Source: Pseudomonadota bacterium
GTDB taxonomy: Bacteria; Pseudomonadota; Alphaproteobacteria; Paracaedibacterales; CAITNM01
DNA: 64,000 nt
NCBI GenBank assembly: GCA_046309815.1
Contig: JBKCOJ010000007.1
Span: forward strand, 26,179-90,178
Reading direction: 5' to 3'
The notes under the pieces are model-generated. The model saw only the letters and a program-made list of their open reading frames with translations. It was not told the origin of the DNA and did no database searches. Within the stretch, counting starts at the first letter, position 1, and each line of letters begins with the position of its first letter. The translations under genes were made by a program, and so were the position numbers. Positions 6,134 to 27,361 of this stretch are shown here, one piece after another.

Positions 6134-8245
6134 GTGTCAGCTGGTGAAATACTCTCAATCAAAATAAACACTTCGTTTGGAGATGGAGCTTTTGTTATTC
6201 AGCAGGCTGTTATTGAGGAAGCGCTATCAGAGCCATATCTTATTGATGTGTATGCATCCACGATGCTTTCTAGTTTTGATGGGGATGACCTGATTTATAC
6301 TAAAGCTGGTATTATTTTCGAAGTCTATGGCGGGAATGATCCCTCAGCTAAAAAGGAAGAGCGCTCTTACCAGGGTATAATCACCCATATGGAACACGTG
6401 CGAACGATTTTTGATGAAAAAAAACAAGTAACACATTTTTTTCATTTTCAAATACGGCCACTTTTTTGGATGTTAAAGCACAGCCGAGATCATCGAATTT
6501 TTCAAGAACAATCAGCGATTGATATTATTCAAACAATTTTTAGAGAAAATGGTTTGTCGGATTTTAAAATACAAGCATCTGGAGGCACGCAAGCACGAGA
6601 ATATTGCGTGCAGTATGGGGAAAGTCATTATGATTTCGTCTCACGATTACTAGAAGAAGAAGGCATTGGGTATTATTTTGTGCATGGTGATTCAGCGCAC
6701 ACGATGGTTCTGTTTGATAGTAATTCAAGTTTTGTGGGTATTGCGCAGGGAAGTTTGCCGTTTTTAAATATCGATACAGAGGGAGCTTTTGTGGATCATG
6801 TGGTTGCGTTTGGGAAAAAATCGCAAGTAGCTGCCAAGGCTTATAAAACTATTGATTACAACTACACGACACCTAATACGCAATTGTTAGGTAACAGCAC
6901 AGGAGCTGGATTTGGCGAGGAAATTTATGAATATCCCGGACTTTTTCAACAATCATCCGTTGGTGCCAAGCTTGCCGACCAGCGCATGGAAGAAATTGAA
7001 TGGTTTACAAAACGTGTGTATGGAAAATCATCCTGTGCAAGTTTAGCACCTGGAACAACGTTTACTCTGGCAGAACATCCTATTACACAGTACAACGCAG
7101 CTTATGCGGTTTCTTATGTAAAGCATGAACTTATTGCGCAGCCTACTGATGAGCACGATACCGATTCGTTTGCTTTAACATACACGAATTCGTTTGAAGG
7201 TTTTTTAAAAACAATTCCTTACAGGCCTTACCGAAAAACGCTGAAACCCCGAATTTATGGTTCACAAACAGCTTTTGTAACGGGAGCCGGCACAGAAGTT
7301 TATGGAGACGCGATGGCGCGCATCAAAGTTAAGTTTCATTGGGATTTGAAAAATCCAAACGATGAAACAAGTTCCCTGTGGGTGCGCGTAAGTCAATCAT
7401 TGAGTGGTGCAAGTTGGGGAGCACTTTACATGCCACGAATTGGTATGGAAGTTGTAGTATCTTTTATCGATGGTGATCCTGATAGACCATTGGTAACAGG
7501 ATGCGTGTACAATCAAGCCTTTATGCCACCCTACTCTCCTAAAGATTCACCTCATTATATGACCTTAAAAAGCAAGACTTTTGACGATGATACGGGAAGT
7601 AATGAATTGCGCTTTAGCGATGAAAAAGGCAAAGAAGAAATCTATTTGCACGGCCAATATGATATGAATACGGTTATTGAGCATAGCCGCACGGAAGATA
7701 TTAAAACGGGTGATGATTCTTTAACTCTTGATGCAGGTGACAAACTTATTCATCAAAAGGGTGATGGCACTATGTTTTTGACGCTTATCGATAGTGGAAA
7801 TCTCACCACTACTCTTAAAAAAGGAAATGTAGTCATTGACGTGAATGGTACTGTTCTTATTAAGGCCACCAAGGCAATTACGGTTACGACACCTGATAGC
7901 ATTACGATCAATGCCGGAAAAAATATCACGATGAAGGCTGGTGAGAATATTGTGATGAATGCTGGAAAAAGTATCCAAAAAAAGGCGGGACAAAATATTC
8001 AATCAACCGCTGGGAAAAGCATTCAAGAAAAAGCCAAAAAAATTCAAGAAAATGCGAGTGCCCAAATTCAACTGAAAACTGCCTCCATGCAGGCAAAAGC
8101 AGGAACATTGATTCAGCTAAAATCTGGAACAGCTTTTAAAGCAAATGCAGGTGCCATAATGGAGATTAAAAGTGGTGGCATGATTAAAGCGGAAGGCGCT
8201 GCTGTTGGTATGTTTAAGGGTGCTATTACGAAGCTTGGAGGCTAA
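6134..8245 (+). CDS. vgrG: type VI secretion system spike protein VgrG (TssI)
   Basis: 703 aa with a GTG start. It carries gp27/gp5-like motifs RIKVKFHWD and WVRVSQSLSGASWGALYMPRIGMEVVVSFIDGDPDRPLVTGCVYN. The C-terminus has beta-helix repeats AGKNITMKAGENIVMNAGKSIQKKAGQNIQ. Confidence 0.92.
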   Translation: MSAGEILSIKINTSFGDGAFVIQQAVIEEALSEPYLIDVYASTMLSSFDGDDLIYTKAGIIFEVYGGNDPSAKKEERSYQGIITHMEHVRTIFDEKKQVTHFFHFQIRPLFWMLKHSRDHRIFQEQSAIDIIQTIFRENGLSDFKIQASGGTQAREYCVQYGESHYDFVSRLLEEEGIGYYFVHGDSAHTMVLFDSNSSFVGIAQGSLPFLNIDTEGAFVDHVVAFGKKSQVAAKAYKTIDYNYTTPNTQLLGNSTGAGFGEEIYEYPGLFQQSSVGAKLADQRMEEIEWFTKRVYGKSSCASLAPGTTFTLAEHPITQYNAAYAVSYVKHELIAQPTDEHDTDSFALTYTNSFEGFLKTIPYRPYRKTLKPRIYGSQTAFVTGAGTEVYGDAMARIKVKFHWDLKNPNDETSSLWVRVSQSLSGASWGALYMPRIGMEVVVSFIDGDPDRPLVTGCVYNQAFMPPYSPKDSPHYMTLKSKTFDDDTGSNELRFSDEKGKEEIYLHGQYDMNTVIEHSRTEDIKTGDDSLTLDAGDKLIHQKGDGTMFLTLIDSGNLTTTLKKGNVVIDVNGTVLIKATKAITVTTPDSITINAGKNITMKAGENIVMNAGKSIQKKAGQNIQSTAGKSIQEKAKKIQENASAQIQLKTASMQAKAGTLIQLKSGTAFKANAGAIMEIKSGGMIKAEGAAVGMFKGAITKLGG

Positions 8246-8247
8246 TA

Positions 8248-9036
8248 ATGAGTATTGAAGCACAACAGCAAATAGAAGCAACAGAGGAGCCACACGCATC
8301 AAATTCAAATACCGAAGCTCCACCAGCTGAAAGTGCAGTTCCTAAAGAACAAGCTACGGATAAATCGCCTGTAAAAAAAAGTCCCATTAAAGAATTAGCA
8401 GAACAGGCAGCGAATCATAATGCCGGGGTGGCTCATGATGGTAAGCTAACCTATACACCCGGATATGAAAAAGATTTTCAAGAAAATGCAGAGATTCATG
8501 AAGAAGATGATGAGAGCGAAGAAGAAGAGGATGACGACGATGACCCCAAGGAAGATCCTCATGCCCCGGAACATGAAGTAAAAACACAAAAAATTGGATC
8601 AAAAACACTGCAAACGGAATTATCGAGAGGACTCAAGCAAGGCCTTACAAGCATCAAGACAAAAGATGGACATTACGAAATGCAGGCGCACTATGTAAAA
8701 GACAAGCTTGATGGATTAACGACGTATTACTTTGCTAATGGAAAAGTTGAGCGCGAAATTCATTTCAAGCATGGAAAAATGCATGGGTCGATGAAGGCTT
8801 TTCATGAGAATGGCCTACCCTCGATGGATGTGGAGTATGAAGATGGACTGATGCATGGCACCACCATCGTTTATGATGATTTTGGGCAAAAACAGGTAGA
8901 GTCGCATTACCAAAAAGGCAAATTGCATGGCGATACGATTGTATTTTCAAATGGAAAACCGTATCTGAAGAAGACATACCACGAAGGTAAAGAAACGCAC
9001 CAGGAATACGACGCCAGTGCAGCACATAGTTGTTAA
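8248..9036 (+). CDS. MORN-variant (YwqK-like) repeat protein with polyacidic N-terminal region
   Basis: It starts 2 nt after the vgrG stop. An acidic tract EEDDESEEEEDDDDDPKED is followed by about 23-aa repeats: YYFANGKVEREIHFKHGKMHGSMKAFHENGLPSMDVEYEDGLMHGTTIVYDDFGQKQVESHYQKGKLHG. Confidence 0.7.
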   Translation: MSIEAQQQIEATEEPHASNSNTEAPPAESAVPKEQATDKSPVKKSPIKELAEQAANHNAGVAHDGKLTYTPGYEKDFQENAEIHEEDDESEEEEDDDDDPKEDPHAPEHEVKTQKIGSKTLQTELSRGLKQGLTSIKTKDGHYEMQAHYVKDKLDGLTTYYFANGKVEREIHFKHGKMHGSMKAFHENGLPSMDVEYEDGLMHGTTIVYDDFGQKQVESHYQKGKLHGDTIVFSNGKPYLKKTYHEGKETHQEYDASAAHSC

Positions 9037-13454: not shown

Positions 13455-15557
13455 ATGATCAAGAGCTGTTTAAAGACCTCCTTATGGATATGTCTTAATT
13501 TATTCAGTATGCTTCATTCCAGTCAGAGCTTCTCATCGTCTGAAGAAGAACTATCTTGGGTGCGAACCAAAACTAGTGAGCTTTCAGCATTAGGATACAC
13601 GCAGGCAGCAGATACTTTAGCGCGACAGATTACCCAACAGCTTATTAACCCGGGCGTTGATAAAGTATTATGCGTTGATGAAATCGATCAGCATTTAAAA
13701 TTAGAACTGTATTACGCGTTCAATACGAAATGGGGGTCAGGAAGAACCAAAGATCATCGCATTGTTTATGATTTTTTGAGTAGGCTTGATAAGGCAGCGC
13801 CAAAAAATCGAGCACAAAGAGAATTTTTAAGCGTACTAACGATTCTTTCACTCGCATCTCAGGAGTATTTTTGGAATGAAAAATCAACCGTAATTGATTT
13901 GAGAAATAGAGCAAAAAGAGAGCTACGTTACGGACTTTTTAAAAAAGCAGGACATAAACTTAACGTAGCAAATTTAATATACTTAGAAGAACCTGACATC
14001 GAACGCCTTACGACCGCATGGATTAGTGAGGAATTACTTGGAAAATTGCAGGCTTTAATGGGGAATTTTAGAGACAAAAATTTAGGTGTAACCTTTTCAG
14101 CCATTTTGGAAGATTTAACAACAAAACTAAGTAAGATAGGAATAGCAAAACTTCCCGTTAAGCTGGATGCTAACACCCGCGAAAAATTTAGCCTGGGTGA
14201 ACAAATGGATTTCAGACCAGCATCTTCAGCTGGTGATGGGATGTGTGGGGAAAACAGTCTTTTCATTTCAACCGATGGTGCTTGTGGTGGCATTTCTGAA
14301 GGCAATGCGCGCTATAAAATAGAACGAGCTATTTTAGATCAAGCAGTGGATCCTATTGCGCATCGTCTATATCTACTAATAAGTCCATACATTAATAATT
14401 CCGAGAAATTTTTAGAGATCATTCAATCTCACCTTGCATCTACAGTTGACCCGAATGAAGTTGCTATTAGAGAAGCTATTGTTGGCTACATGCAACAAGA
14501 GATGGATTTAAACACCAGAAGGCAAGAAGGTGCAAGTCAGCAATTACGAGACCTTATCGCACGTGTCACTAAGCCCTTATCAATAATTTTGAATAGGTTT
14601 AAAGATGAGCTTGCCGAGTCAGAAAAATTAAGTGCCTGGACAGGCAATGGAGCAGATGCTTTTAAAGATGCGTCCTGTCGCGATTTTAATAGTCTGATTG
14701 AAGAAGTGTTAAATAGTGAAAGCATAAACCCGGGATTAGTCTCAGTCATAGATCCAATTCGTGCAGAGATTACAAGAATTATGAGCCAACCTGGCATTCA
14801 ACGTCCTAAAAAAATGGCTGAGCGAAATAAGCTGGTGGGAGCTGCGCTTCGCTCATACCTTGATGCTGATATTTTGCCAGGCACGATGAGCGATAAATCT
14901 TTTGATATTGATAAACTTTGTGAGCCAAGAAATGAACGGTATTCTTTCTTAACAAGTTTATGCGTTGCTGCGTGTCGATTGGTTAGGCCTGTTTTAGCCA
15001 CTGCTGCTTCTACGGAAACTTTAATTGAGAGTGAAATTGCTGCAATCAGGGATGAAAAGGATGAGGTGATTCGAGAAATTGAACATACCCTTTCGATGGA
15101 AAGATTAAAGATTTTAGGGCTTTTTAGCACCCTGCCTGCGCAATTTTCCCCTGACATATTAAAAGAAGATATGCATAAAAAAGCCTTAAGTCCTGGAGAA
15201 CTAGCTGGGTGGTTACCTTGCGATGCTATTTATACGCAGCTTTGGGCAATGGTAAACAACTTAAATATTTTTGTTTTTTCAAGTGGGGAAAGCCATGGAA
15301 GATCAGGTCTTGATTTAATGATCCGCCTTAAAGATGATCCTTACACTCAAATAGCAACGCACTATTCACATGGCGTCAGCGGTAAACATTTAGCAACGGT
15401 GATTTTAACCTCACCAACGGCTAAAAATGTTTATTTAAGTAAGTCACCCGCGCATTATGACAAGCTTCTTTCGCCAAATGACTTGGCTGCCATGGCGCGT
15501 GAAGCGCGTCATCTTGAGTGGATGAAAGATCCACAACGATATGCGTTATATCCGTAA
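13455..15557 (+). CDS. secreted OTU-like cysteine protease candidate, paralog 1 (putative deubiquitinase-like effector)
   Basis: 700 aa with signal peptide MIKSCLKTSLWICLNLFSMLHSS. Cys box AGDGMCGENSLFI (Cys264, nt 14244-14246), loop GELAGWLPCDAIYTQLWAMVNNLNIFVF, and His box PAHYDKLL (His667, nt 15453-15455). Confidence 0.55.
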   Translation: MIKSCLKTSLWICLNLFSMLHSSQSFSSSEEELSWVRTKTSELSALGYTQAADTLARQITQQLINPGVDKVLCVDEIDQHLKLELYYAFNTKWGSGRTKDHRIVYDFLSRLDKAAPKNRAQREFLSVLTILSLASQEYFWNEKSTVIDLRNRAKRELRYGLFKKAGHKLNVANLIYLEEPDIERLTTAWISEELLGKLQALMGNFRDKNLGVTFSAILEDLTTKLSKIGIAKLPVKLDANTREKFSLGEQMDFRPASSAGDGMCGENSLFISTDGACGGISEGNARYKIERAILDQAVDPIAHRLYLLISPYINNSEKFLEIIQSHLASTVDPNEVAIREAIVGYMQQEMDLNTRRQEGASQQLRDLIARVTKPLSIILNRFKDELAESEKLSAWTGNGADAFKDASCRDFNSLIEEVLNSESINPGLVSVIDPIRAEITRIMSQPGIQRPKKMAERNKLVGAALRSYLDADILPGTMSDKSFDIDKLCEPRNERYSFLTSLCVAACRLVRPVLATAASTETLIESEIAAIRDEKDEVIREIEHTLSMERLKILGLFSTLPAQFSPDILKEDMHKKALSPGELAGWLPCDAIYTQLWAMVNNLNIFVFSSGESHGRSGLDLMIRLKDDPYTQIATHYSHGVSGKHLATVILTSPTAKNVYLSKSPAHYDKLLSPNDLAAMAREARHLEWMKDPQRYALYP

Positions 15558-15632
15558 AACGGCGTCATATTTTAACTCTTTGTTAATACTTCCTCTTTGA
15601 TACTTAGGTAAAGATTTTACCAGAGGGGATTT

Positions 15633-18143
15633 ATGGTATTTTGGGGATTTTTCTTACTTATCTATACATTTTTTTCATCTTTTGCATTTCCTGTAGAAAC
15701 TGAGGATCAACCTGGCGTAGAGCATATCATTTTTCGGCCAGAAATTCAGCATTTAATAAAAGAGCATATGCGATTTTGCACCCTTGGATATACAGAAGAA
15801 GCAGATACTTTAGCGCGAAAAAATACTCAAGACATTGGAACTTTATTTGCAGATATGGAACTTACAAAAGATGAGTTTAATGAATTGGTGGGAATTCATT
15901 TACGAACAGAGTTTTATTATGCGCTTAATTCAGTGTGGAATTGTGGAGCAACAAGGAATCCACGTCATATCTATGATTTTCTAAGTCAATTTGATAAAGG
16001 ATTTGCTAACACTCCAAAACGTAAAGAACATCTCACCACATTTACCATTCTTTCCCTAGCGGCTCATGAGTATTTTTGGAATGAACGATCCTCAACAGAA
16101 GATTTAAAAAAACATGTAGCACGTGAATTGCGTTATGGACTGTTTAGGGAATCTAGTCATGTATTAGACATGACATCATTGCTTTATTTGGATGAAGGAA
16201 ATATATCTCGTATTTCAAATGCTTTAATTGATGAATTATTTTTGCAGGCTCTATTTTTCTTCACGGAGAGTTATAGAGAGCAAACACTTGGGAGAACTTA
16301 TGCTCAGATATACAGACATTTGAACCAAGTAGTAGAAGAACAACTTAAATCTCCTCATCGACTTTCATTAGATATACTTCCAGAAAATTTACGCGACCAG
16401 GCTGGTTTATACCTTAAGTTACCCCTTTGCCTTGCTGATTCTTTTCCTGATGGTATGTGTGGACAGCACAGCCTTTTCATTCCAACAGATGGTCCTTTAG
16501 CCGCTTCGGAGAGTACTGGAATCGCTGAAGGAAACGGCAGATACAAAATGCTTCGTGCAATTTTAGACAATACTGCGGATGTTGATGCACGACGAATTTA
16601 TCTCATGATTAGTCGTCATATGGATGGTGTGGGTTTTTCTTCTTTAATAGAGAAAATGGTTGCGGAACTGGGAGAAAGAGATGTGGAGCAAGCGAGTGCT
16701 TTAAGAGAAAGAATGATACAGTACAGTCAATTTAAAAGTAATAAACAAGCAGAAAATGAAGAACATATTAATCAATCAAAACGAGAGATGCTAACTGCTG
16801 TGATAGCATTACCTGCTTTAGAAGACGCCTTGAAGGATTTTCATGCAAAAATTAGTGACCCAGAGCAGTTAAAAGTATTGATCCTAGATAAAAACTTTCG
16901 CGATATTATTGATGCAATCTTAAGCTTGAGAAAAGCAAGACCAACAATAGATGAGCGTTTGGCAGGGATAGACGTCGAGATTGAAAGGCTAAGCACTGAA
17001 ATAGCTGCCGAAAAAACAGCCGCTGTTGAGAAAGTAAGAGCAGAGCGAACGCGATTACAAGAAGAAATTAAAAAATTAAGAACCGAATCTCAAGAGTATC
17101 AACAACAGCATCAAGCCGAAGTAAATGAGCTTGCTGTATTGGTATCTCGGCGTCAGCAGCTTCTTAATTTGATACAAAGAAAGCAAGTTCAAGGAAACTC
17201 TGAACAACTAAAGCAAAATGTTGAAAAGCAATTTAAGGATTTTGAGGAAAAATACCCAGAATTTGCCCAATTTATGAATGAAAAACAAATAGCCATTGCT
17301 AAAGTACAACAAGAATATAAAGAACTTAGGGAAGATACTTCCCTTTATGAGCAAAAGTTAGCTGAGAAATATACGTTGATTTGCGAAACGATAAAAGAGT
17401 TTTTAAACCCAAGCATGTTACCTGGGAAAAGCACTGATGCATTTTTATTTGATGAACTTTGCGAGAGTGGATACTCAATATTTATTACCGAGGTTTGCCA
17501 GCCCGTTGCAGAACTTTTACAGCAACCAGAAACGGCAAGATCATGCGGAAAACTTTGGGATGATTTTCAAGATCGTAAGGATATTTTTAATCATCAGGTA
17601 GAGCAGGATTTAATAGCCCAAAGATTGGAAATTGTTAGTTCTTTAACTGAATTTCCTGAAGAATTATCGCCTGCATCATTGGGGGCAGAAATGCAAGAAT
17701 TGGCTTTACGTGGAGGAGAATTGGGAGGATGGTTGCCTTGTGATTCAGCGTATGTGCAATTATGGGCAGTTTTACACAATTTAAATGTTTTTGTTATATC
17801 TGATCAGGAACATTTCGGTAATCAGTTGATTAGACCAAAGCTTAATTTAATGTCGCGTTTTGCCGATCAGCCATATGCACAACAGACAATTTTGTATCCT
17901 CCAGAAAAAACAGGCTTTCATCTTGCAATGGTTATTTTAACGTCAGAACGAGCAAAAAGTGTTGTTTTGCGTAGGCAAAATAATCATTATGAAAAGCTAT
18001 ATGATCCAACTGATCATATCGCCACTTCTATGCAGCAGCGGCATCTTAAGTGGGTCGACCTGGGAGAAAAAATGTATGAGTCTTATCCGAAGAAAGCTGT
18101 AGCTATAACGAACACACAAAGCAACCCAGCGGAAGAGGCTTAA
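15633..18143 (+). CDS. secreted OTU-like cysteine protease candidate, paralog 2, with coiled-coil insertion
   Basis: 836 aa with signal peptide MVFWGFFLLIYTFFSSFAFP. Cys box FPDGMCGQHSLFI (Cys276, nt 16458-16460), GELGGWLPCDSAYVQLWAVLHNLNVFVI, and His box NNHYEKLY (His785). Colinear with 13455..15557. A heptad-rich segment spans about nt 16950-17360. Confidence 0.55.
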   Translation: MVFWGFFLLIYTFFSSFAFPVETEDQPGVEHIIFRPEIQHLIKEHMRFCTLGYTEEADTLARKNTQDIGTLFADMELTKDEFNELVGIHLRTEFYYALNSVWNCGATRNPRHIYDFLSQFDKGFANTPKRKEHLTTFTILSLAAHEYFWNERSSTEDLKKHVARELRYGLFRESSHVLDMTSLLYLDEGNISRISNALIDELFLQALFFFTESYREQTLGRTYAQIYRHLNQVVEEQLKSPHRLSLDILPENLRDQAGLYLKLPLCLADSFPDGMCGQHSLFIPTDGPLAASESTGIAEGNGRYKMLRAILDNTADVDARRIYLMISRHMDGVGFSSLIEKMVAELGERDVEQASALRERMIQYSQFKSNKQAENEEHINQSKREMLTAVIALPALEDALKDFHAKISDPEQLKVLILDKNFRDIIDAILSLRKARPTIDERLAGIDVEIERLSTEIAAEKTAAVEKVRAERTRLQEEIKKLRTESQEYQQQHQAEVNELAVLVSRRQQLLNLIQRKQVQGNSEQLKQNVEKQFKDFEEKYPEFAQFMNEKQIAIAKVQQEYKELREDTSLYEQKLAEKYTLICETIKEFLNPSMLPGKSTDAFLFDELCESGYSIFITEVCQPVAELLQQPETARSCGKLWDDFQDRKDIFNHQVEQDLIAQRLEIVSSLTEFPEELSPASLGAEMQELALRGGELGGWLPCDSAYVQLWAVLHNLNVFVISDQEHFGNQLIRPKLNLMSRFADQPYAQQTILYPPEKTGFHLAMVILTSERAKSVVLRRQNNHYEKLYDPTDHIATSMQQRHLKWVDLGEKMYESYPKKAVAITNTQSNPAEEA

Positions 18144-18144
18144 T

Positions 18145-19293
18145 TTAGGATTCCTCAGCCATCAGTTCATGCAGTTGTTGTTCGGTGATGCCTAAAATGT
18201 CACAAATATCTTCGGTTTTCATTTCTTTATTTTGCATGCGTGTAATTGCTGCGCGTTTTGTTCTTTTTTCACCAACTTTTTCGCCTTCTTCACGTTCCAC
18301 CGCCAGAGTTGCCGCATAAAGATCTCGATTCGCTAAATTCTCTCTGTATTCACCCGTCACTCTCGGACTCCATTGCTGTAAATCTAAACGGTTTAAGGCG
18401 TTGTATATGGCAACAGGCATTATTCCTGTACCTTCGTTATACCATTCTGCTACTTTTGCTGATGTGTACTCCTGCGCATGATGTAAGACACTCACCCACC
18501 AATCCGCCATCGTAAAATCTGCCTGTGGCGGAAACAACGATTTTGTTCTTTCCGCACGTGGTAACTCCACTTGGATCATCTGCAAATAATCAATTTGCTG
18601 TCCCGATTTATCCGTTAAAACATAGTGCTTAATAAATTGCTCTGTTGGTAATGGGTGTTCTTTTACTCTATCCACTAAAGTATCTGGCACCTCTGCCTTA
18701 AGACCACGAATGCGATTCGTGTCATAATCTAAAATTTGTAAGGCAATTACTGGTTTTAGGTTAATATACCAATTCTCAGCACTGAGTTGCCTTTCTGATA
18801 ATTGGCGCGCATAAATTCCACACGCATAAAATAAAGCTCGCTCATCAAACATCACATGACGCTGCGCCTGCATTTCGATAATGTAATGAACCCCGCTTTG
18901 CGATGTCACGTGCAAATCCATGAAGGTCTGTTTCTCTCCCGGGTGCCTAAGCGCTGGGATAGCAACAGGGGCTTCCTCAACTTCCACCACTGGGTCGCCC
19001 CTGAAGGGAGGAATAAAGCAATTTAAGAAAGAAATCACAATTGAAGGGTCACTTCCCATCGATAAAGATAACATATGCTTAAAAGCGGTATCGGTGGTAG
19101 CAATCGCGTAGTGATAGTCGCCAAGCTGATGCAACAATGCTTCTTTGACAACTTCATCGGAAGATTGTTCGATGGTGCGTTTGCGTGATAGTCCTTCTGG
19201 ATCTTTTGATTCCATCGCAAAGGAAGAACCAAGAGCAACACAAATGCCAAAAATAAAAAACTTCTGTAAAAATTGTTGGTTTTTTTTAACCAT
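18145..19293 (-). CDS. Rpn-family / PD-(D/E)XK nuclease family putative transposase
   Basis: FKHMLS...FMDLHVTSQSGVHYIIEMQAQ (D...E.Q nuclease core) with a C-terminal TEDICDILGITEQQLHELM helix-turn-helix-like tail. I prefer the ATG at 19293, which has a GAGGAG SD, over the ORF-track start at 19332. Confidence 0.68.
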   Translation of the reverse strand: MVKKNQQFLQKFFIFGICVALGSSFAMESKDPEGLSRKRTIEQSSDEVVKEALLHQLGDYHYAIATTDTAFKHMLSLSMGSDPSIVISFLNCFIPPFRGDPVVEVEEAPVAIPALRHPGEKQTFMDLHVTSQSGVHYIIEMQAQRHVMFDERALFYACGIYARQLSERQLSAENWYINLKPVIALQILDYDTNRIRGLKAEVPDTLVDRVKEHPLPTEQFIKHYVLTDKSGQQIDYLQMIQVELPRAERTKSLFPPQADFTMADWWVSVLHHAQEYTSAKVAEWYNEGTGIMPVAIYNALNRLDLQQWSPRVTGEYRENLANRDLYAATLAVEREEGEKVGEKRTKRAAITRMQNKEMKTEDICDILGITEQQLHELMAEES

Positions 19294-19453
19294 CGCGTTG
19301 TTCTCCTCGCCAGCTCTCCCCTGTCTTCCCATTACTACATTTCTCTTGTTCTTTCAAGAAAAAATGAGAAAAGCTAGGCATCTACATACTTTAGCTATTG
19401 TGCAGAAAAGCTATTCGACTTACCATTAAATGAGGTATTAAAAATCCAAATGC

Positions 19454-21262
19454 ATGGCAAAAGTCGACGACTCATTAGTTCGCTATTACCAAGAAGAGCT
19501 TGATTACTTACGTTCAAGCGGAAAAGAGTTTGCCAAACAATATCCAAAAATTGCGCGACGCCTCGAATTAACGGATGGAGAGTCCCCAGATCCACAGGTG
19601 GAAAGGCTGCTTGAATCATTTGCTTTTCTAACGGGACGTTTGAGTAGAGCGATTGATGATCGATTTCCGCAAACAGCGCAGGCTTTATTGAGTGTTTTGT
19701 ATCCTCATCTGGTTAATCCTATTCCAGCGATGGCAATTGCAAAACTACATGTTGATCATAGTCAAATTCCAGCAGATAAAGGGTATTATCTTGAGAAAGG
19801 CACGAAGCTTTTAGCGCATTCAGTTGAGGATGTGCAGTGCCAATTTCAAACAGTTTATAACACCCATCTTTGGCCTTTAAATATTCAAAAAGTTGAGCTG
19901 GTAGCAAGAGATGCTTTCACTTTTGAACACTCACCTCAACATCATTGGCTTTTAAAAATGACGATTCATTCAAAAAATTCGCCAATAAAAGCGATGAATG
20001 TGGATAATTTATTAGTGCATATTTCGTGTAATTGGATAAAAGCAAATTTGTTTTATGAAGCGTTATTTAGTGAATGCGCTGGCAAACTGTATGTTGCAAC
20101 GGATGAAAAAATAACGGCTGTAGAAGCGTGTACGCTGGAGCCTGTTGGCTATAAGCGTGATGAATTACCCCTTCCTGTTCCTGATTATAGTTTGCATCAT
20201 TATGCGCTGTTTCAAGAGTACTTCCATTTCAGTGAAAAATTTTTATTCTTTCGTATTGCAGGATTGCAAAAAGCCATTGCAGCGCTGGCCCCGCAGCAGG
20301 AAATGCATCTTTTAATTCCTTTAAAAAATGCCATGGTTTTTCAGCAAAAAGGAATTGATGCATCGGTATTTTCGTTGAACTGCTTGCCAGTTGTGAACTT
20401 ATTTGAGCGGCCTTCTGATCCGATACGTATTCATCATCGCCATTTACGTTATCGTTTAATCCCTGACATACGCCGAGAACGCACGAGCGAAGTGTACAGC
20501 GTTCAGCATGTGGAAGGCATTGAAGAAAAGACGCAAAAAGTCATTGAGTATAAGCCGTATTATGGTCTTGAAACGCGTGATAATGAAGGGTTCTTTTGGA
20601 CTGCTCAACGTGTGCCAGCGGGTCTTAGAGGACTGCCAGGAACTGATGTGTATTTATCCTTTATCAACCGAAATTTTAATCCTATTAAGGCGAAAGACGT
20701 TGTTGTAACGGCAAAAATTTTGTGCACCAATCGGTATCTGGCAGATCAATTAGCTGCTGGCTCGCTGCTGCAACCAGAGGGCAAAGCGCCGGTTTTAAAG
20801 ATTACGCTATTGAATAAGCCCACTTCGCAAAATTACACGATGCTGGATGGAGAGAGTTTGTGGATGTTGATATCGCAGCTTTCGACCAATTATTTAGGCG
20901 TGCTTAATGTTAATCAAGGCTTAAATTCTTTGAAAGAATTTTTGTATCTTTTTGCGAGTCGTTACCCCGATAAACCTGCGTCTTCTATTGAAGATTTGAA
21001 AAATATGACCATTAGCCAGATAACGAGGCGCTTTGGTGCGGATGCGTGGCGTGGTTTTGTGCAAGGCTATAAGGTGCAGCTTGAGATGGAAAAAACGAAT
21101 CATGAAGGCGGCAGTAATTTGATTTTGGGAACGATTTTGAATGCATATTTTAGCTCAACAGTCAGTTGGAATAGCTTTGTCGAGTGCAGTTTGAATGATG
21201 GCAAAAATAATGGAGAATGGATGCAATGGCAGCCCCAGCCCGGCGTGCAAACGCAGTTGTAA
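19454..21262 (+). CDS. tssF: type VI secretion system baseplate subunit TssF
   Basis: The N-terminus YYQEELDYLRSSGKEFAKQYPKIARRLEL...DPQVERLLESFAFLTGRL is the TssF (ImpG/VasA) signature. Confidence 0.9.
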   Translation: MAKVDDSLVRYYQEELDYLRSSGKEFAKQYPKIARRLELTDGESPDPQVERLLESFAFLTGRLSRAIDDRFPQTAQALLSVLYPHLVNPIPAMAIAKLHVDHSQIPADKGYYLEKGTKLLAHSVEDVQCQFQTVYNTHLWPLNIQKVELVARDAFTFEHSPQHHWLLKMTIHSKNSPIKAMNVDNLLVHISCNWIKANLFYEALFSECAGKLYVATDEKITAVEACTLEPVGYKRDELPLPVPDYSLHHYALFQEYFHFSEKFLFFRIAGLQKAIAALAPQQEMHLLIPLKNAMVFQQKGIDASVFSLNCLPVVNLFERPSDPIRIHHRHLRYRLIPDIRRERTSEVYSVQHVEGIEEKTQKVIEYKPYYGLETRDNEGFFWTAQRVPAGLRGLPGTDVYLSFINRNFNPIKAKDVVVTAKILCTNRYLADQLAAGSLLQPEGKAPVLKITLLNKPTSQNYTMLDGESLWMLISQLSTNYLGVLNVNQGLNSLKEFLYLFASRYPDKPASSIEDLKNMTISQITRRFGADAWRGFVQGYKVQLEMEKTNHEGGSNLILGTILNAYFSSTVSWNSFVECSLNDGKNNGEWMQWQPQPGVQTQL

Positions 21263-22230
21263 AGCAATCTCTTCCCGAACAGGTTTTAGAAACGCCTGAA
21301 GCGTTTGATCTGGATCAGCTGATTTATATTATCGAATCGTTGCGCACAAATGTGGCGCCGCTTGGCGAAGCTACCAATCCTCAAAAAGAGGCCGTGCGGC
21401 TTCGAAGCCCTATTACCATGCACCAAGAAGGTACTGAAGTTAATCGTTTGGAGGTGAAAAATACACTTTCAAAAGTGCCCGAGATTTATATTAATACGCT
21501 GAGCCTTGCGGGTGTAAATGGCCCGTTACCGACGCCTTATACGGAAAAGCTGCTTGAGCAAATGAAGCAAAAGGATTTTGCGGGCGCGCATTTTTTGGAT
21601 ATTTTTCATCACCGTTTGGCATCGATGTGGCATCGCTTGCGCAAGCGTACCTACCCTCACCTTTTCAAAAGTCCGCCAGCGCAAACACCGATTGGGAAGC
21701 TGCAAGAAAATTTGAGTGGTTTTGCGCAGCAAGGAGACGTTGATCATACGTTGTTTTTCGATCATTTTTGGAAGCGATCGAGATCGCTTGCAGGCCTGTT
21801 ACAAATGGTGAAAACATTTTTTGGCGTGGAAGCATCGATTAGCCCATTTGAGGGGGCATGGCGAAAGGTGGATGCGGCGGAGGGAAGCCGGATTGGTAAG
21901 CGAGGACAGTTTCAGGTTTTGGGCAAAGATGCCATTTTGGGTCTGCGGTGCTGGGATCAGGCGGCAGGATTTACGATTGAGGTGGCTCCTCTTGATTGGG
22001 AGGCATTGCAGGGATTTTTACCGTTTAAAAGCAATGCGCTGGGTGGAGGAAATTTTTATAAGCTGAAACAGCTGGTGGTGAGTTATATGGGAACATTGCC
22101 GAGGGTGTTTTTAAAGCTTTCGCTGAAAGAGGGTGAAAATCGTGGGGCGAGTTTAGACCACAACCATGGGCTTGGCTGGAACACATGGCTGAGTGGTGCG
22201 ACGGCGGAGAGTGTGCGGGTAAGGGTTTAA
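21217..22230 (+). CDS. tssG: type VI secretion system baseplate subunit TssG
   Basis: GVNGPLPTPYTEKLLEQ...FLDIFHHRLASMWHR matches the TssG (ImpH/VasB) core. It overlaps the tssF 3' end. Confidence 0.85.
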   Translation: MDAMAAPARRANAVVKQSLPEQVLETPEAFDLDQLIYIIESLRTNVAPLGEATNPQKEAVRLRSPITMHQEGTEVNRLEVKNTLSKVPEIYINTLSLAGVNGPLPTPYTEKLLEQMKQKDFAGAHFLDIFHHRLASMWHRLRKRTYPHLFKSPPAQTPIGKLQENLSGFAQQGDVDHTLFFDHFWKRSRSLAGLLQMVKTFFGVEASISPFEGAWRKVDAAEGSRIGKRGQFQVLGKDAILGLRCWDQAAGFTIEVAPLDWEALQGFLPFKSNALGGGNFYKLKQLVVSYMGTLPRVFLKLSLKEGENRGASLDHNHGLGWNTWLSGATAESVRVRV

Positions 22231-22241
22231 GAGAGGCTTAT

Positions 22242-23439
22242 TTAATATTCTCTTGAAAAATCAACTAATGAGCCATCTGCTTTAAACACGTACCTCAAAT
22301 CCCCAGAACTAGCCGTGCTATAAATAGATTTTTTTGTTGTAAATATTGACCATTTTGGGTTTTTATCTATAGCCATGAACTCAAAAATAGGTGAAAGCTG
22401 TCCTTTTGCATATTCAATATCTTTAAAATCAGGAATACCAATTGTTACTGAATGTAAATCCTCAAGAAGAAAAACATCATTTTCGGTATCTCTTAAGCAA
22501 TCAATTAAAATAAACTCCTGAAAGAGTGCTAAATCAGGATGCCCGTTATATCTATAACCTGCGCTAATTGCGACATGGTGAGGGCCCTTCTTACTTAACC
22601 ATAATCCATCATTTGAACCATCTTTATCTTTTGCTCCGTGATGACTAAAGACAGACAATTGAACATTTTGAAGAGGTTGTTGATGAGGAGCTGCCGTTAA
22701 ATTTTTCCTGCAATCTATCAAATACCTCCTTGTAGCGATAGCTGACGCATCCCCCATAATTAAAATGTTTTTGCCATTTAAAGAAAGTCTTACGATAGCA
22801 CTATTTGTGTTTTCATCATTCTCATAGGAGGTGCCTACACCCGCGTTAGCACATAAAATTGATAAAAATGTATGAGGATTATGAAGGCTTTCCGCATCTA
22901 AAAACCCATCTTTTAATAAAAGATCTATCGCATAGTGGGTAATAAAATGGACAATTCTTGGGGGTAACCGATTTAAGACTTCTTCGTATAGTTCTTTGCC
23001 CTCTTCTTTCCACAAATAACTGTGTTGATTATCGCCTAATATAAATTGATTAGTGCGTAAAAATAATGTTGTATTGAGATTAAATAATTTAGCAAGGTGA
23101 TGTTAAAAGATTAAGATGATCTTTATCACTGTGAGAAATAATAACCGTGATTTTTCCTGCATAATCTGGTAAATCTGCATGCACTTCACCTATTCCGAGA
23201 GCACAAGCAATACGGTTAATAATTTCATTAGGAGTGTCTGAAGATGTACCAAAATCTACAACTACATAGGATCCATTCTTTTTATTTTTTAGAAGGGTAT
23301 TACCTCCTTGCCCCACATTTTCAGCAATCACTTCGAAATTAGCACCATTGTTATAGCAATGATGAAAGTCAGCAGCGTCAAAACCTGATACCGCAAAAAT
23401 AACCTGACAAAAAGCAATAATAACTAAAAAGATAAGCAT
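22242..23439 (-). pseudogene. ComEC/Rec2-like metallo-beta-lactamase-fold hydrolase with signal peptide, split into two ORFs by a frameshift
   Basis: ORF 23089..23439 carries VGQGGNTLL...VVVDFG...IISHSDKDHLNLL. The ORF 22242..23015 frame is open up to 23102 and carries NSAIVRLSLNGKNILIMGDAS, SVFSHHGAKD, ISAGYRYNGHPD and STASSGDLRYVF. Together these follow the colinear ComEC C-terminal MBL motif order. The two frames overlap only in 23089-23102. Confidence 0.6.
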
Positions 23440-24827
23440 TTATCCCTCAATATGGCTTTCTGGTAGTTTTCGTAATTATTCACGTGTTGCTCTAACGCAA
23501 GGAAATTTTCTCTTCGATCAATACTCAATCCAGCAGCTTCAAGAAGGTTTCCGGCATAAATAAAACCTCTTTCTGCGGCGCGTGCTGCTATTGCTTCTAT
23601 TTTATTCTGAATGTTTGTTATAGGCTCTAAATTATTTATTTTTTTTAAAATTTCTATTTGTTTTTCATACCCTTTATCAATTCCACCTTCTATATCAATT
23701 CCGCCTTCTGTTGCTTTTTTATAGTGCTCTAGTGCTTGTTTAAGAGCGTGTACCCTTTTTTCCGGATCAATTTGTGAATATGCAAAATATTCAGTAAAGT
23801 CACCCGCGTCATAGGAAATTTCGGGGAATTCATTGGTTGTATTTTCAGCTAGAGAAGCTAGATAATATTCATTAGCTCTAACAAGATCACGAGGTGTAGA
23901 AATACCATATCTATGATATTGCGCAAGCTTCCACAAAGCATATGCTTTTATGCGCAAATGTAGTGAGTTACTAATAAAGTCATCCGCTTTTGATTGATCT
24001 TGTGTAAGAATCATAAAACCATGCTCTATCAATCCTCGACGAGATCCTTGAGCAACCGCCATTTGAAATAAATTAGTTGCTAAATCAGATCTTCCTAAAA
24101 ACTTATAGATGTATCCAGCATTTAAAAGCGTCGTGAGTTGTCTTCGCGCAAGATGAACTGTAGCAGAACTAGCATTAGCTACTTCTGCTTCTAAGTTACT
24201 GTAAAAGCTATTCTGTTTAGCTGTGTCATTTAAAATTTCTTTAGCCTTTTCTACAACCATACCGTTTTCTGTTGCAAAAGGTATAGAAAGCACTTGAGAT
24301 AAATGCTGTTCTGTAGAAATTGTTTCAAGATTTACGTTTTTGTAGCTCCCCAAAATAAGAATATTTTTTGCAAGTTTAAACCCGAAGTCTGCTGATACTA
24401 AAATCAAAGCTCTCTCAAAAAATGACAATTGATTAAAATTCGTCTTAAGGGTATTGGCAAAAAGATGGTGAGGAAAAAACAACGCTCCTATGAATTCTCC
24501 AACATTAGGCCTATCCCCTAGCATTAACTTTGATTGAAGAACTTCATGAGGCTGTGATCTCATGTATCGGCAAATATCTTCTTCCACCATTGTTGATAGT
24601 GTACCATTCTTTTTGAATTTTTTTATAAGCTTTGCTTTTTGTTCAAAAAGAGTTACTAAATTTCTCGTTTTATTAAGTTCTACAGCAAGACTATCCGTGC
24701 CTGCAGCGATACCAACATTTGATATAAGAAAAAATGAAAACCAAAATAAGACTAACTTACTGGGTTGCTCCTGGCTCAACATAATCAAATCCTGTTGCTT
24801 TATAAGCGGTATCAGGAACCCAACCAT
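23424..24827 (-). CDS. Sel1/TPR-like repeat protein with N-terminal signal/anchor
   Basis: 467 aa. The likely start is MLSQEQPSKLVLFWFSFFLISNVGIAAG at 24782. It has a Sel1-like unit AYALWKLAQYHRYGISTPRDLVRANEYYLASLAE. It overlaps both the downstream and upstream ORFs, which suggests an operon. Confidence 0.6.
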   Translation of the reverse strand: MVGFLIPLIKQQDLIMLSQEQPSKLVLFWFSFFLISNVGIAAGTDSLAVELNKTRNLVTLFEQKAKLIKKFKKNGTLSTMVEEDICRYMRSQPHEVLQSKLMLGDRPNVGEFIGALFFPHHLFANTLKTNFNQLSFFERALILVSADFGFKLAKNILILGSYKNVNLETISTEQHLSQVLSIPFATENGMVVEKAKEILNDTAKQNSFYSNLEAEVANASSATVHLARRQLTTLLNAGYIYKFLGRSDLATNLFQMAVAQGSRRGLIEHGFMILTQDQSKADDFISNSLHLRIKAYALWKLAQYHRYGISTPRDLVRANEYYLASLAENTTNEFPEISYDAGDFTEYFAYSQIDPEKRVHALKQALEHYKKATEGGIDIEGGIDKGYEKQIEILKKINNLEPITNIQNKIEAIAARAAERGFIYAGNLLEAAGLSIDRRENFLALEQHVNNYENYQKAILRDKCLSF

Positions 24828-26494: not shown

Positions 26495-27361
26495 TTAATC
26501 AGCTCGTCTTGGCGGCTTAAGTGCGGAAAGACGTTTAATGATTTTTTGGTTACTCGAACGAGCTATTGTAGTCATTCTAAAGAGACCACTAACTGCTGTT
26601 TGATTACCCAAATTAGCGGCTCTTGCACAATAACTAATTCCTTCCGACAGATCTCTTTCAATGCCTTCTGCACCGTTAAAAAGGTAGATCGAGTAGTCAT
26701 ACAGCATCTTCGGTAGATCCTCTCGAGCTTTATCATTTCCTAATTTTTCTGCTCTTTCACAATATCCAATTGCCGCCAGCATATCTTTCTCAACACCTTC
26801 TTTCCCTTTAAAAAGGCACATTGAGTAGCTATACAACATCTGTGGTAGATATTCTTTTGCTTTACTATTTCCTAGTTCTGCAGCTCTTTCACAATAGCTA
26901 ATTGCCTCTGGTATATTTTTTTCAACACCTTCTTCACCTTTTAAAAGGTAAATTGAATATCTATACAGCATCTTTGGCAGTTGCTCTTGAGCTTTACTAT
27001 CTCCTAGTAGATTTGCAAGTCTTTCACAATATTCAATTGCCCTTGGTATATTTTTTTCAACACCATTTCCACCTTCTAAAAGTAGATATATCTCTTTATG
27101 CAACATTCTTAGAGTTTGGCTATTTTCTCGTCTAACTTCTTCCAAAAAAGTAGATGTTGTAGATGTTTCTGGTATATCAGCTTCTAAAAGAACTGGCTCT
27201 CTTCTTTCAATACTACGTTTAGCTATCTCTGATATATCTCGTATATTCGAGACGATATCTTCAAATTTGCCCTCTGCTGCGGCCTTGGCTGGCGACATAT
27301 AAACAGCGCAGTAAAAGATGATCAACATCAAAAATTTGGTTTGCATAATACTATTCTTCAT
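26495..27361 (-). CDS. secreted Sel1-like repeat protein
   Basis: Signal peptide MKNSIMQTKFLMLIIFYCAVYMSPAKA. Four ~44-aa units of the type LPKMLYRYSIYLLKGEEGVEKNIPEAISYCERAAELGNSKAKEY. Confidence 0.7.
   Translation of the reverse strand: MKNSIMQTKFLMLIIFYCAVYMSPAKAAAEGKFEDIVSNIRDISEIAKRSIERREPVLLEADIPETSTTSTFLEEVRRENSQTLRMLHKEIYLLLEGGNGVEKNIPRAIEYCERLANLLGDSKAQEQLPKMLYRYSIYLLKGEEGVEKNIPEAISYCERAAELGNSKAKEYLPQMLYSYSMCLFKGKEGVEKDMLAAIGYCERAEKLGNDKAREDLPKMLYDYSIYLFNGAEGIERDLSEGISYCARAANLGNQTAVSGLFRMTTIARSSNQKIIKRLSALKPPRRAD

Follow-up and report, generated by a model that had tools for sequence, protein, structure and literature searches.

Two large open reading frames lie in tandem on the forward strand of the window (the whole 64,000-nt stretch of contig analyzed here). 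ORF1, the short-form paralog, occupies positions 13455..15557 (+) and encodes 700 aa (open reading frame list, BLASTP and 38 homologues), and ORF2, the long-form paralog, occupies 15633..18143 (+) and encodes 836 aa (open reading frame list and BLASTP). Both were found exactly where the initial annotation had placed them, and its description of the two as colinear paralogs was borne out by BLASTP, which aligned them in two blocks, one in the N-terminal half (33% identity, E 8e-68) and one in the C-terminal quarter (38% identity, E 1e-46). The ATG of ORF1 has an SD-like AAGAG 9–13 nt on its 5' side, and that of ORF2 is immediately preceded by an SD-like AGAGGGG. Scanning for promoters and terminators around the pair was uninformative, with fewer sites detected than in shuffled sequence.

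When 1.84 billion representative proteins were searched exhaustively with HMMER, 31 belonged to the family; a Pfam scan of ten of these showed no OTU or other informative domain, so that no homologue bridging the family to a known one emerged. Every member is named 'hypothetical protein' in the databases. The members come from Paracaedibacteraceae/Holosporales-like MAGs, among them Finniella and Odyssella, which are host-associated lineages and agree with the earlier impression of a host-associated genome. The family is best read as small and confined to Holosporales/Paracaedibacteraceae; its gene has been duplicated and has diverged repeatedly, and ORF2 sits on a long branch of the family tree. 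Searches with the full-length or spliced sequences against Pfam (E up to 10) returned no match, and the full-length proteins had no informative match in NCBIfam. Among PDB sequences, no OTU match was obtained with the full-length proteins (phmmer and hmmsearch, coiled-coil noise only) or with spliced-core profiles. Given these results and the uniform database names, the architecture does appear to be undescribed, as had been proposed.

Upstream of the pair, vgrG (6134-8245, from Pfam-based neighborhood annotation) is separated from ORF1 by five genes: a MORN/YwqK-like gene, lepB, a patatin gene, tsaD, and an MFS transporter gene. Downstream are the T6SS baseplate genes tssF (19454-21262, +; Pfam E 1.1e-162) and tssG (21217-22230, +; Pfam E 7.4e-60). 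Between ORF2 and tssF is a PD-(D/E)XK_2 transposase-like gene on the minus strand (18145..19332; PF12784, E 1.4e-18), which is missing at the equivalent position in related genomes and is not a family member. The coordinates place ORF1 and ORF2 between vgrG and tssF-tssG, as noted at the outset, but the genetic link is to tssF-tssG and not to vgrG. At 13 of 16 species-representative GTDB loci, a family gene stands directly 5' of tssF-tssG on the same strand at a distance of 57–110 nt, and such a gene adjoins tssF-tssG in two more contigs. This adjacency holds where the upstream neighbors differ (L009, L013, L014, and L015); at L004, L016, L019, L020, and L022, the family gene is not beside T6SS genes. 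ORF1 and ORF2 showed no homology to Tss or Tag families in Pfam or NCBIfam, and Pfam found in them no adaptor domain and none of the PAAR, MIX, and Rhs domains that often mark T6SS effectors. Relative to their L001 orthologues, ORF1 and ORF2 are 58% and 42% identical, respectively, with neighboring genes at 64–91%. No other genes in the syntenic block evolve as fast, a behavior typical of host-interface proteins.

Conserved motifs and N-termini of the family

All motifs and residue numbers reported initially were correct, including the Cys-to-His spacings of 403 aa in ORF1 and 509 aa in ORF2. The Cys box of ORF1 (aa 258-288; 14226..14318, +) carries the invariant residues S258, C264, G265, S268, and R286, and contains the sequence DGMCG (aa 261-265; 14235-14249, +) with Cys264 as the candidate nucleophile. 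The DGMCG of ORF2 (aa 273-277; 16449..16463, +) contains Cys276. A longer PDGMCG had been read in both proteins, but the Pro is found in ORF2 only, ORF1 having G-DGMCG. Further downstream, aa 581-609 of ORF1 (15195..15281, +; GELAGWLPCDAIYTQLWAMVNNLNIFVFS) comprise a loop with Trp586, the first residue of WLPCD (aa 586-590), followed by a helix and the first core beta-strand, which bears the invariant N604; the WLPCD loop of ORF2 is at aa 700-704 (17730..17744, +) and starts with Trp700. Finally, the His box of ORF1 (aa 646-676; 15390..15482, +; LATVILTSPTAKNVYLSKSPAHYDKLLSPND) has invariant H667, K670, and D676 and includes HYDKL (aa 667-671; 15453-15467, +), in which the candidate general base, His667, opens a beta-strand. 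ORF2 has HYEKL at aa 785-789 (17985..17999, +), beginning with His785.

Ten residues are invariant family-wide (Ser258, Cys264, Gly265, Ser268, Arg286, Asn604, His667, Lys670, Asp676, and Arg685), even in members with 26–31% identity in the aligned core, and ORF1 and ORF2 both retain all ten. Conservation of the motifs over 38 homologues, together with the invariance of Cys264 and His667 in the farthest relatives, indicates that the motifs did not arise by chance; the Cys and His on which the first interpretation hinged are the family's most strictly kept residues. Less uniform are the Asp three residues before the Cys (Asp261) and the Trp of WLPCD, which characterize the core family but are both lost in distant members: the core family almost always has Trp586, but P0161, P0162, and P0165 have Leu or Phe in its place, and P0175 and P0177 lack it. 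Two residues after the His, nearly all members carry D, E, N, or S, and P0165 carries Met. The cysteines C503, C507, and C589 are also conserved, but unlike C264 they are lost in remote members. A second possible D-G-x-C box, TDGAC at Cys277 of ORF1, was considered and rejected, as few members have a Cys at position 277.

N-terminal to the Cys box, ORF1 has a conserved all-alpha domain (aa 30-230; 13542..14144, +) with a mean column identity of 0.63 and pLDDT >90 in the full-length model. Its motifs are ELYYAFNT, YDFLS, LSLA.QEYFWNEKST, and RELRYGLF, of which EYFWNE, RELRYGLF, and YDFLS are present in both ORF1 and ORF2. A QEY.WN..ST..DL motif is kept in the remote homologues P0174–P0177. Neither a fold match nor a family match was found for this domain.

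Signal peptides were judged by a heuristic analysis of n-, h-, and c-regions, not by SignalP. By this measure ORF1 begins with a Sec-type signal-peptide-like segment of about aa 1-26 (13455..13532, +; MIKSCLKTSLWICLNLFSMLHSSQSF), and ORF2 with a hydrophobic segment (15633..15692, +; MVFWGFFLLIYTFFSSFAFP) that is signal-peptide-like or anchor-like and is without a basic n-region. Nearly all family members, remote ones included, have a signal-peptide-like hydrophobic N-terminus, typically with 1–4 K/R, an uncharged core of 12–16 residues, and a polar c-region, in line with the Sec-like signal peptides first ascribed to the two proteins. The NCBI version of ORF1 is 682 aa long and begins at Met19, which removes the hydrophobic segment; this internal alternative Met is absent from most homologues. 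A lipoprotein (TssJ-like) reading was dropped, the N-termini having no conserved lipobox before a Cys. The cytoplasm is where canonical T6SS cargo is loaded onto VgrG, Hcp, or PAAR, and a Sec-type signal peptide across the family argues against such a status for ORF1 and ORF2, in conflict with the suggestion that they are T6SS-related effectors.

Predicted fold of the core

About two-thirds of ORF1 is helical in the full-length AlphaFold model, and a Foldseek search with this model returned only helical-bundle noise (E >= 0.3) and zero OTU matches. Much of the helix belongs to an insertion at aa 333-559 (14451..15131, +; defined from the secondary structure of the full-length model), which runs from the Cys-box lobe to the WLPCD loop, holds two very long helices (335-386 and 516-555), and is the least conserved region of the protein (0.47). 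Measured from Cys to Trp, the distance is 322 aa in ORF1 (Cys264 to Trp586) and 424 aa in ORF2 (Cys276 to Trp700), almost wholly helical. The additional length of ORF2 includes a coiled-coil-like segment at about aa 440-580 (16950..17372, +; alignment columns about 560-690 and heptad heuristic) that long forms of the family have and short forms lack. It is charged, poor in Pro and Gly, and weakly matches coiled-coil proteins and SMC. An extra segment is indeed present where a long heptad-rich coiled coil had been described, and a strict heuristic finds a heptad-like stretch at 455-492.

The core was also modeled with the helical insert removed, using an alignment with the spliced sequence as first row and full-length homologues as the remaining rows. 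AlphaFold then predicted a compact alpha/beta domain (pLDDT 82.1, pTM 0.80). In a Foldseek search of this model against the PDB, OTU deubiquitinases accounted for 47 of the 50 top matches and represented at least eight subfamilies: Cezanne, wMelOTU, nairovirus vOTU, OTUD1/3/5, A20, OTUB1/2, TRABID, and LotB. The best matches were Cezanne (5lrw; E 2.7e-3, prob 0.92), Wolbachia wMelOTU (6w9r; E 3.3e-3, prob 0.97), and CCHFV vOTU (3pse; E 4.6e-3), and LotB (6ks5) ranked 29th (E 0.11, prob 0.16). The PDB matches are weak in absolute terms, none having E <= 1e-3, with TM-scores of 0.2–0.45 and RMSD >10 A. Among BFVD viral structures, three matches reached E <= 1e-3, and several were labeled OTU or ubiquitinyl hydrolase.

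The elements of the spliced model follow the order strand, Cys loop, helices, Trp loop, helix, strand, strands, and His-initiated strand, which is the order of motifs in genuine OTUD5 and OTU1 sequences. Helix 138-146 and strand 149-155 come after the Trp loop, and strand 213-218 begins at His667. An OTU fold is papain-like, with helical lobes flanking a central beta-sheet, and in papain-like enzymes the Cys sits at the start of a helix. Residues 257-284 around Cys264 are coil in both models, with pLDDT below 50–65 and no helix start. Taken together, the predictions suggest with moderate confidence a core that resembles an OTU fold split by a very long helical insertion; the OTU fold expected from the motifs is recovered, through its structural neighbors, from the spliced core but not from the full-length model.

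Profile comparisons used alignments built from real PF02338 proteins of the OTUD5 and OTU1/YOD1 types, collected with bait sequences that matched at 96% identity. For these two OTU subfamilies, and with scoring that did not use secondary structure, hhalign gave the spliced family profile probabilities of 0.2–13% and never aligned it in the Cys/His register. The motif-based assignment to OTU proteases is partly supported, by the invariant Cys and His and by the OTU-like spliced model, but not by the Pfam OTU model or hhalign. In canonical OTUs the catalytic His is followed two positions on by an acidic residue, a pattern that the H-Y-D/E/N/S of the family fits (PMC10133868). OTUs also conserve an aromatic residue, which clamps the Gly-Gly of ubiquitin, and a basic one, which supports the Cys loop (PMC7396840); placed by sequence order only, Trp586 and Arg286 are candidates for these respective roles.

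Comparable known enzymes and the proposed function

Classical OTUs (PF02338; OTUD5, OTU1/YOD1, Cezanne/A20, nairovirus vOTU, and wMelOTU), which are the family's top Foldseek neighbors, agree with it in the predicted alpha/beta core and the element order and resemble it in short motifs (D-G-x-C, an aromatic loop leading into a helix and a strand, and H-Y-D). They differ in that the family lacks a Pfam match, is negative by hhalign against the OTUD5 and OTU1 types, has a Cys-to-His spacing of 403–509 aa, carries a signal peptide, and does not have its Cys modeled at a helix N-terminus. The Legionella Lots (LotA, LotB/Ceg23, LotC/Lem27, and LotD/Ceg7) form a subclass of OTUs whose helical lobe is extended. 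Like the ORF1/ORF2 family they are bacterial, come from bacteria living inside protists, and have a Cys-then-His catalytic order; the core family also has D261 N-terminal to the Cys, as in the A20/Lot-type triad, and its insert appears to occupy the position of the extended lobe, which in Lots binds ubiquitin. Helical lobes measure 50–60 aa in classical OTUs, 110–120 aa in otubains, and 178–210 aa in Lots (PMC7690952), whereas the family inserts of 322 and 424 aa are about 1.5–2 times longer than those of Lots. Unlike Lots, the family has an extra conserved N-domain of 200 aa, bears a Sec signal peptide in place of Dot/Icm translocation, and occurs in Alphaproteobacteria, not Legionellales; its match to LotB is no better than to other OTUs, and there is no detectable sequence similarity. 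The Coxiella EmcB family likewise consists of divergent OTU-derived bacterial deubiquitinases recognized mainly via structure (PMC12501173), but these are circularly permuted and Dot/Icm-translocated, whereas the present family has the canonical Cys-then-His order and a signal peptide.

A working model for the sense of a signal-peptide-bearing deubiquitinase is Burkholderia TssM, which is encoded near T6SS genes, yet is not T6SS cargo. TssM, a deubiquitinase made by a cytosolic bacterium, depends on Sec and the T2SS (PMC10719079) and takes ubiquitin off LPS on the bacterial surface (PMC10371091). It differs from the family in being a USP-type deubiquitinase or esterase, not an OTU, and is unrelated to it in sequence; moreover, a T2SS is known in Burkholderia but unreported for this lineage (PMC8163844).

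We tentatively favor, at a little short of an even chance, the view that ORF1 and ORF2 are exported, highly divergent OTU-fold cysteine proteases, probably deubiquitinases at the symbiont-host interface. The proteins would be exported by Sec and then undergo a further step across or onto the outer membrane. Behind the conserved all-alpha N-domain, the catalytic core would have the papain-like fold of OTU-type cysteine proteases in a very divergent form, in which Cys264/Cys276 may serve as nucleophile and His667/His785 as general base, with Asp669/Glu787 two residues on as in canonical OTUs. A helical lobe of about 320 aa in ORF1 and about 420 aa in ORF2, the latter including the added coiled coil, would split this core after the helices on the Cys side and ahead of the loop that bears the Trp. 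Substrates on or close to the surface of the symbiont, which dwells in the cytoplasm, may then lose ubiquitin or a ubiquitin-like modifier through cleavage by the enzymes, and this would blunt host ubiquitin-dependent recognition, with TssM as the model. Against this view stands the published Bodocaedibacter genome analysis, which reports Sec and a T6SS only (PMC8163844), since a Sec-exported protein would still have to reach host ubiquitin. 

Amoebae, ciliates, kinetoplastids, and other protists widely harbor Holosporales/Paracaedibacteraceae as obligate symbionts. The group has no characterized effector, and the T6SS is just a candidate route in reviews (PMC11909080, PMC8163844). If the favored view is right, the family offers a concrete, testable candidate for escape from ubiquitin-dependent clearance in the host cytoplasm. 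The OTU fold would be extended to a 320–420-aa helical lobe and to Sec-dependent export, and bacterial OTUs would again be shown to evade sequence-based annotation.

Alternative explanations

The tight linkage to tssF-tssG could mean a bacterial rather than a host function. A broader formulation, which is possible but rather unlikely in our estimate, is that the family constitutes an unrecognized Sec-exported OTU subclass that is tied to the T6SS baseplate genes and acts at the envelope or surface, where it would either strip host ubiquitin/Ubl from the symbiont itself, as a self-protecting deubiquitinase whose helical lobe would be the largest known for an OTU fold, or cleave a bacterial isopeptide-type bond for an atypical T6SS. 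Such a subclass would for the first time give a functional handle on how Holosporales endosymbionts interact with their hosts, and with a bacterial substrate the OTU fold would have been put to an unexpected use.

It is unlikely that the proteins assist the unusual T6SS of the lineage, as a cysteine hydrolase or structural factor of the periplasm or envelope, and act on a bacterial substrate, not ubiquitin. They might, for instance, remodel peptidoglycan or a lipoprotein link for assembly or replace a missing envelope component, the OTU-like fold being a scaffold of papain type that now acts on another amide or isopeptide bond. Adjacency to tssF-tssG at 13 of 16 loci despite differing upstream neighbors and envelope placement by the Sec-type signal peptide are consistent with this idea, as is a review according to which some standard components seem to be missing from Holosporineae T6SSs (PMC11909080). 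Against it, the fold neighbors are deubiquitinases and not NlpC/P60, CHAP, or other cell-wall hydrolases; Tss/Tag homology is lacking, and five loci have no T6SS adjacency. The family evolves much faster than TssF, TssG, and VgrG and has repeatedly duplicated and diverged, both unusual for a core machine part. Moreover, the surrounding block is largely syntenic, housekeeping genes included, so that the adjacency may reflect genome stasis.

We doubt still more that ORF1 and ORF2 are deubiquitinase-like effectors injected into the host by the T6SS, with the hydrophobic N-terminus acting as a host-membrane anchor or the true start lying downstream. The OTU-like predicted fold, the T6SS genes nearby, the standing of the T6SS as main candidate effector route in the group (PMC11909080, PMC8163844), and the NCBI start at Met19 of ORF1 would all suit injection. 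However, the N-terminus has signal-peptide proportions throughout the family (basic n-region and 12–16-residue core), the long starts are preceded by SD-like sequences, and most homologues have no alternative internal Met. The absence of PAAR, MIX, Rhs, and adaptor domains also speaks against injection, as does the gene order, in which the neighbors are baseplate genes rather than vgrG/hcp and five unrelated genes separate vgrG from ORF1.

It is very improbable that the two are secreted or envelope helical proteins without enzymatic activity (adhesin-like or scaffolds), whose Cys and His are structural (disulfide or metal) and whose OTU resemblance is an artefact of modeling a spliced sequence from a shallow alignment: the largely helical composition, the poorly modeled Cys loop, the uniformly negative sequence-based OTU tests, and the frequency of disulfides in exported proteins, along with the other conserved cysteines C503, C507, and C589, would fit, but those cysteines are not kept in remote members as C264 is, a single Cys and a single His invariant at 26–31% overall identity form the pattern of a catalytic dyad, small residues flank that dyad (S.G..CG and G.H.xK), and fold matches so consistently to OTUs have a specificity that is hard to get by chance.

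Gene pair and predicted export signal

The forward-strand genes ORF1 (13455-15557, 700 aa) and ORF2 (15633-18143, 836 aa) are co-directional and separated by a gap of 75 nt. As proposed in the initial annotation, they are tandem and, judging from their sequences, colinear paralogs: in BLASTP alignments, identity was 33% over the N-terminal half (E 8e-68) and 38% over the C-terminal quarter (E 1e-46). The residue numbers given for the candidate catalytic boxes were all correct, with Cys264 of ORF1 and Cys276 of ORF2 lying within DGMCG, WLPCD found at 586-590 and 700-704, and the C-terminal His box represented by His667 in HYDKL and His785 in HYEKL, respectively. Cys-to-His spacings of 403 and 509 aa were also confirmed. 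The sole slip among the motifs concerned PDGMCG, which had been read in both proteins; DGMCG is indeed shared, but ORF1 reads GDGMCG.

Nearly all family members, remote ones included, start with 1-4 basic residues; an uncharged core of 12-16 residues follows, and then a polar stretch containing small residues. Such proportions indicate a Sec signal peptide that is cleaved off and not a membrane anchor, so that the Sec-like signal peptides originally noticed in the pair were borne out, by a heuristic call, as a feature of almost the whole family. Shine-Dalgarno-like sequences lie 5' of both long start codons. The ORF1 product deposited at NCBI (P0183) is 682 aa long and starts at Met19, which removes the signal-peptide-like segment (window 13455-13508). 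Because of the Shine-Dalgarno-like motif and the family-wide conservation, the 700-aa start is favored, and the public annotation of ORF1 may conceal an export signal. At the other end of the proteins, an R/K-Y-x-x-Y-P tail is nearly invariant and located at or near the extreme end of most members (window 15537-15554 in ORF1). It is modeled with low confidence and might be a sorting or secretion signal.

Distribution and evolution of the family

When 5.8 billion clusters were searched by indexed words, 38 homologues were returned, none with a Pfam domain or an informative name. In an exhaustive HMMER profile search, just 31 of 1.84 billion representatives matched at E <= 1e-3. The database entries for the ORF1 and ORF2 proteins are titled 'hypothetical protein' and come from metagenome-assembled genomes (MAGs) of Alphaproteobacteria or Pseudomonadota. 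Among species-representative genomes, the carriers are MAGs named Candidatus Finniella, Candidatus Odyssella or unclassified Alphaproteobacteria. They belong to the Paracaedibacteraceae/Holosporales, which are obligate protist symbionts. We know of no effector from this symbiont group.

Conservation peaks in an all-alpha N-domain (aa 30-230), the Cys-box region, and the C-terminal 140 residues, while the helical middle is the least conserved part. Ten residues (S258, C264, G265, S268, R286, N604, H667, K670, D676, and R685) are invariant even in the most distant relatives, which share 26-31% identity in the core, and all ten are kept in both ORF1 and ORF2. Distant members do not conserve Asp261 (the 'D-G-x-C' Asp), Trp586, or the other cysteines C503, C507, and C589.

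In a simple distance tree, the short forms (ORF1 type) form a single clade nested among the long forms. It follows that the short form probably arose as a duplicate and has since lost the coiled-coil segment. Another lineage has a second tandem pair upstream of tssF, and this one is more divergent. This older pair (locus L021, 8001-13032) consists of P0161 (690 aa), then the long form P0011 (841 aa), followed by tssF-tssG; the upstream copy, P0161, has lost Asp261 and Trp586 and kept the Cys and His. The existence of the second pair suggests that duplication is recurrent, with the upstream copy diverging. Relative to their orthologues at locus L001, ORF1 and ORF2 are the fastest-evolving genes of the syntenic block, with identities of 58% and 42%, respectively, compared to 64-91% for all neighbors, including TssF, TssG, and VgrG. 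Divergence at this rate is more in keeping with a protein at the host interface than with a component of the machine. Degraded copies were also encountered: a frameshift or an assembly error has broken the family gene at L013 (9998-12431) into two ORFs that overlap, and two short fragments at the end of a contig binned as Sphingomonadaceae (L017, 19-522) are either a remnant or the result of mis-binning.

Possible relationship to the OTU fold

Sequence methods did not connect the family to OTU proteases. No OTU was found in Pfam, NCBIfam, or PDB-sequence searches with full-length proteins, profiles, or insert-removed profiles. Using hhalign, the spliced family profile (helical insert removed in silico) was compared with two alignments of real, OTU-labeled PF02338 sequences, one of the OTUD5 type and one of the OTU1/YOD1 type; probabilities were 0.2-13%, in wrong registers.

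Structure prediction was more informative on this question. The full-length ORF1 model was confident overall (pLDDT 83, pTM 0.74) but poor precisely around Cys264 and in the C-terminal sheet, and its Foldseek neighbors were helical noise. When residues 228-332 of ORF1 were joined to 560-700, with full-length homologues as the alignment rows, the resulting 246-residue core was predicted to be a compact alpha/beta domain (pLDDT 82.1, pTM 0.80) with a six-stranded C-terminal sheet whose last strand begins at His667. The Cys loop is a low-confidence coil in this model too. OTU deubiquitinases made up 47 of its 50 best Foldseek matches in the PDB, spanning Cezanne, A20, TRABID, OTUD1/2/3/5, OTUB1/2, nairovirus vOTUs, Wolbachia wMelOTU, Legionella Ceg23/LotB, and Otu2. 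Probabilities reached 0.97, with TM-scores of 0.2-0.45 and a best E of 2.7e-3, such that no PDB match was obtained at E <= 1e-3. Three matches at that threshold were found among predicted viral structures, where the matches include several labeled OTU or ubiquitinyl hydrolase as well as nairovirus and tenuivirus L proteins. The fold matches favor the OTU reading of the core, but the scores are weak and the sequence and profile searches empty. On balance, we consider it fairly probable that the modeled core is a true OTU-type fold, and less so that the enzyme would be a deubiquitinase. The initial observation was confirmed and its interpretation partly supported.

The Cys and the Trp are 322 aa apart in ORF1 and 424 aa apart in ORF2; almost the entire stretch is helical and contains two helices of 40-50 residues. 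Should the fold assignment hold, the family shares with the Legionella Lots a type of elaboration that it extends much further and combines with an extra conserved N-domain. It is not specifically close to the Lots, LotB ranking 29th (E 0.11) among the PDB matches of the spliced core. The long heptad-rich coiled coil attributed to ORF2 corresponds to a real extra segment (~aa 440-580, roughly 120-140 residues) that is charged and Pro/Gly-free, but it is only partly heptad-like and has only weak coiled-coil and SMC matches. Bacterial OTUs are an established theme, including in alphaproteobacterial endosymbionts and in forms invisible to sequence searches (PMC7396840, PMC12501173), and the family is therefore not categorically new. 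Its novelty would lie in combining, in an unannotated family, the longest helical lobe so far observed in an OTU fold with an added N-domain, Sec export, and a conserved position beside T6SS baseplate genes.

Genomic neighborhood and possible function

The pair was said to lie between vgrG and tssFG, which is literally true but loose, with five unrelated genes separating vgrG from ORF1. The link to the baseplate genes is closer: in 13 of 16 species-representative loci and two further contigs, a family gene precedes tssF-tssG in the same orientation at a distance of 57-110 nt, and the adjacency persists despite different upstream neighbors. A PD-(D/E)XK_2 (Rpn/YhgA-like) 'transposase' gene (18145-19332, reverse strand) sits exactly between the ORF2 stop codon and tssF. 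Because the ORF2-like gene and tssF are just 57-110 nt apart in relatives, it is an insertion specific to this lineage and has probably interrupted what was once a single transcription unit.

Our best, tentative reading is that the pair encodes very divergent OTU-fold cysteine proteases that would be exported via Sec, use a putative Cys264/His667 dyad, and probably remove ubiquitin or a ubiquitin-like tag at the surface of the symbiont or close to it. Burkholderia TssM offers a precedent: this deubiquitinase, from a bacterium that lives in the cytosol, depends on Sec for its secretion (PMC10719079) and de-ubiquitylates LPS (PMC10371091). Genome analysis of Bodocaedibacter found only Sec and a T6SS (PMC8163844). 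The synteny with tssF-tssG and the signal peptide would also suit an envelope hydrolase or an accessory factor for an atypical T6SS. This alternative is unlikely: the fold neighbors and the rate of evolution speak against it, and so do the loci that break the synteny, the linkage being absent in L004, L016, L019, L020, and L022. Synteny extends over the entire block in these genomes, which rearrange slowly, and the dispersed T6SS groups [tssG-tssF] and [ywqK-vgrG] have already been noted as conserved (PMC8163844). Less probable still is the initial suggestion, drawn from location, of a true T6SS-injected deubiquitinase: no cargo markers were found, and a Sec-type N-terminus fits poorly with canonical T6SS cargo, which is loaded in the cytoplasm. 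That the proteins are non-enzymatic and helical, with the OTU resemblance a modeling artefact, is very improbable, since the Cys/His pattern is invariant and the fold matches are specific.

Several other genes of the block deserve mention. The vgrG gene is followed by a MORN_2/YwqK-like gene (together 6134-9036), matching the [ywqK-vgrG] module of this group (PMC8163844); the N-half of the latter is an extremely acidic low-complexity run (EEDDESEEEEDDDDD). The adjacent reverse-strand ORFs 22242-23015 and 23089-23439, which have no Pfam or NCBIfam match, may be two parts of one gene that was split or frameshifted; an HSDKDH motif in the second recalls metallo-beta-lactamase-fold enzymes. Just downstream of tssG are two proteins with the eukaryote-like Sel1 repeat (23424-24827 and 26495-27361, both reverse strand), the first with a hydrophobic N-terminus, which are possible host-interaction factors. 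Finally, a patatin-like phospholipase gene beside tsaD is duplicated, or duplicated and fragmented, at L003 (220-2480) and L021 (3364-5638), suggesting another candidate host-interaction gene undergoing turnover in the same block.
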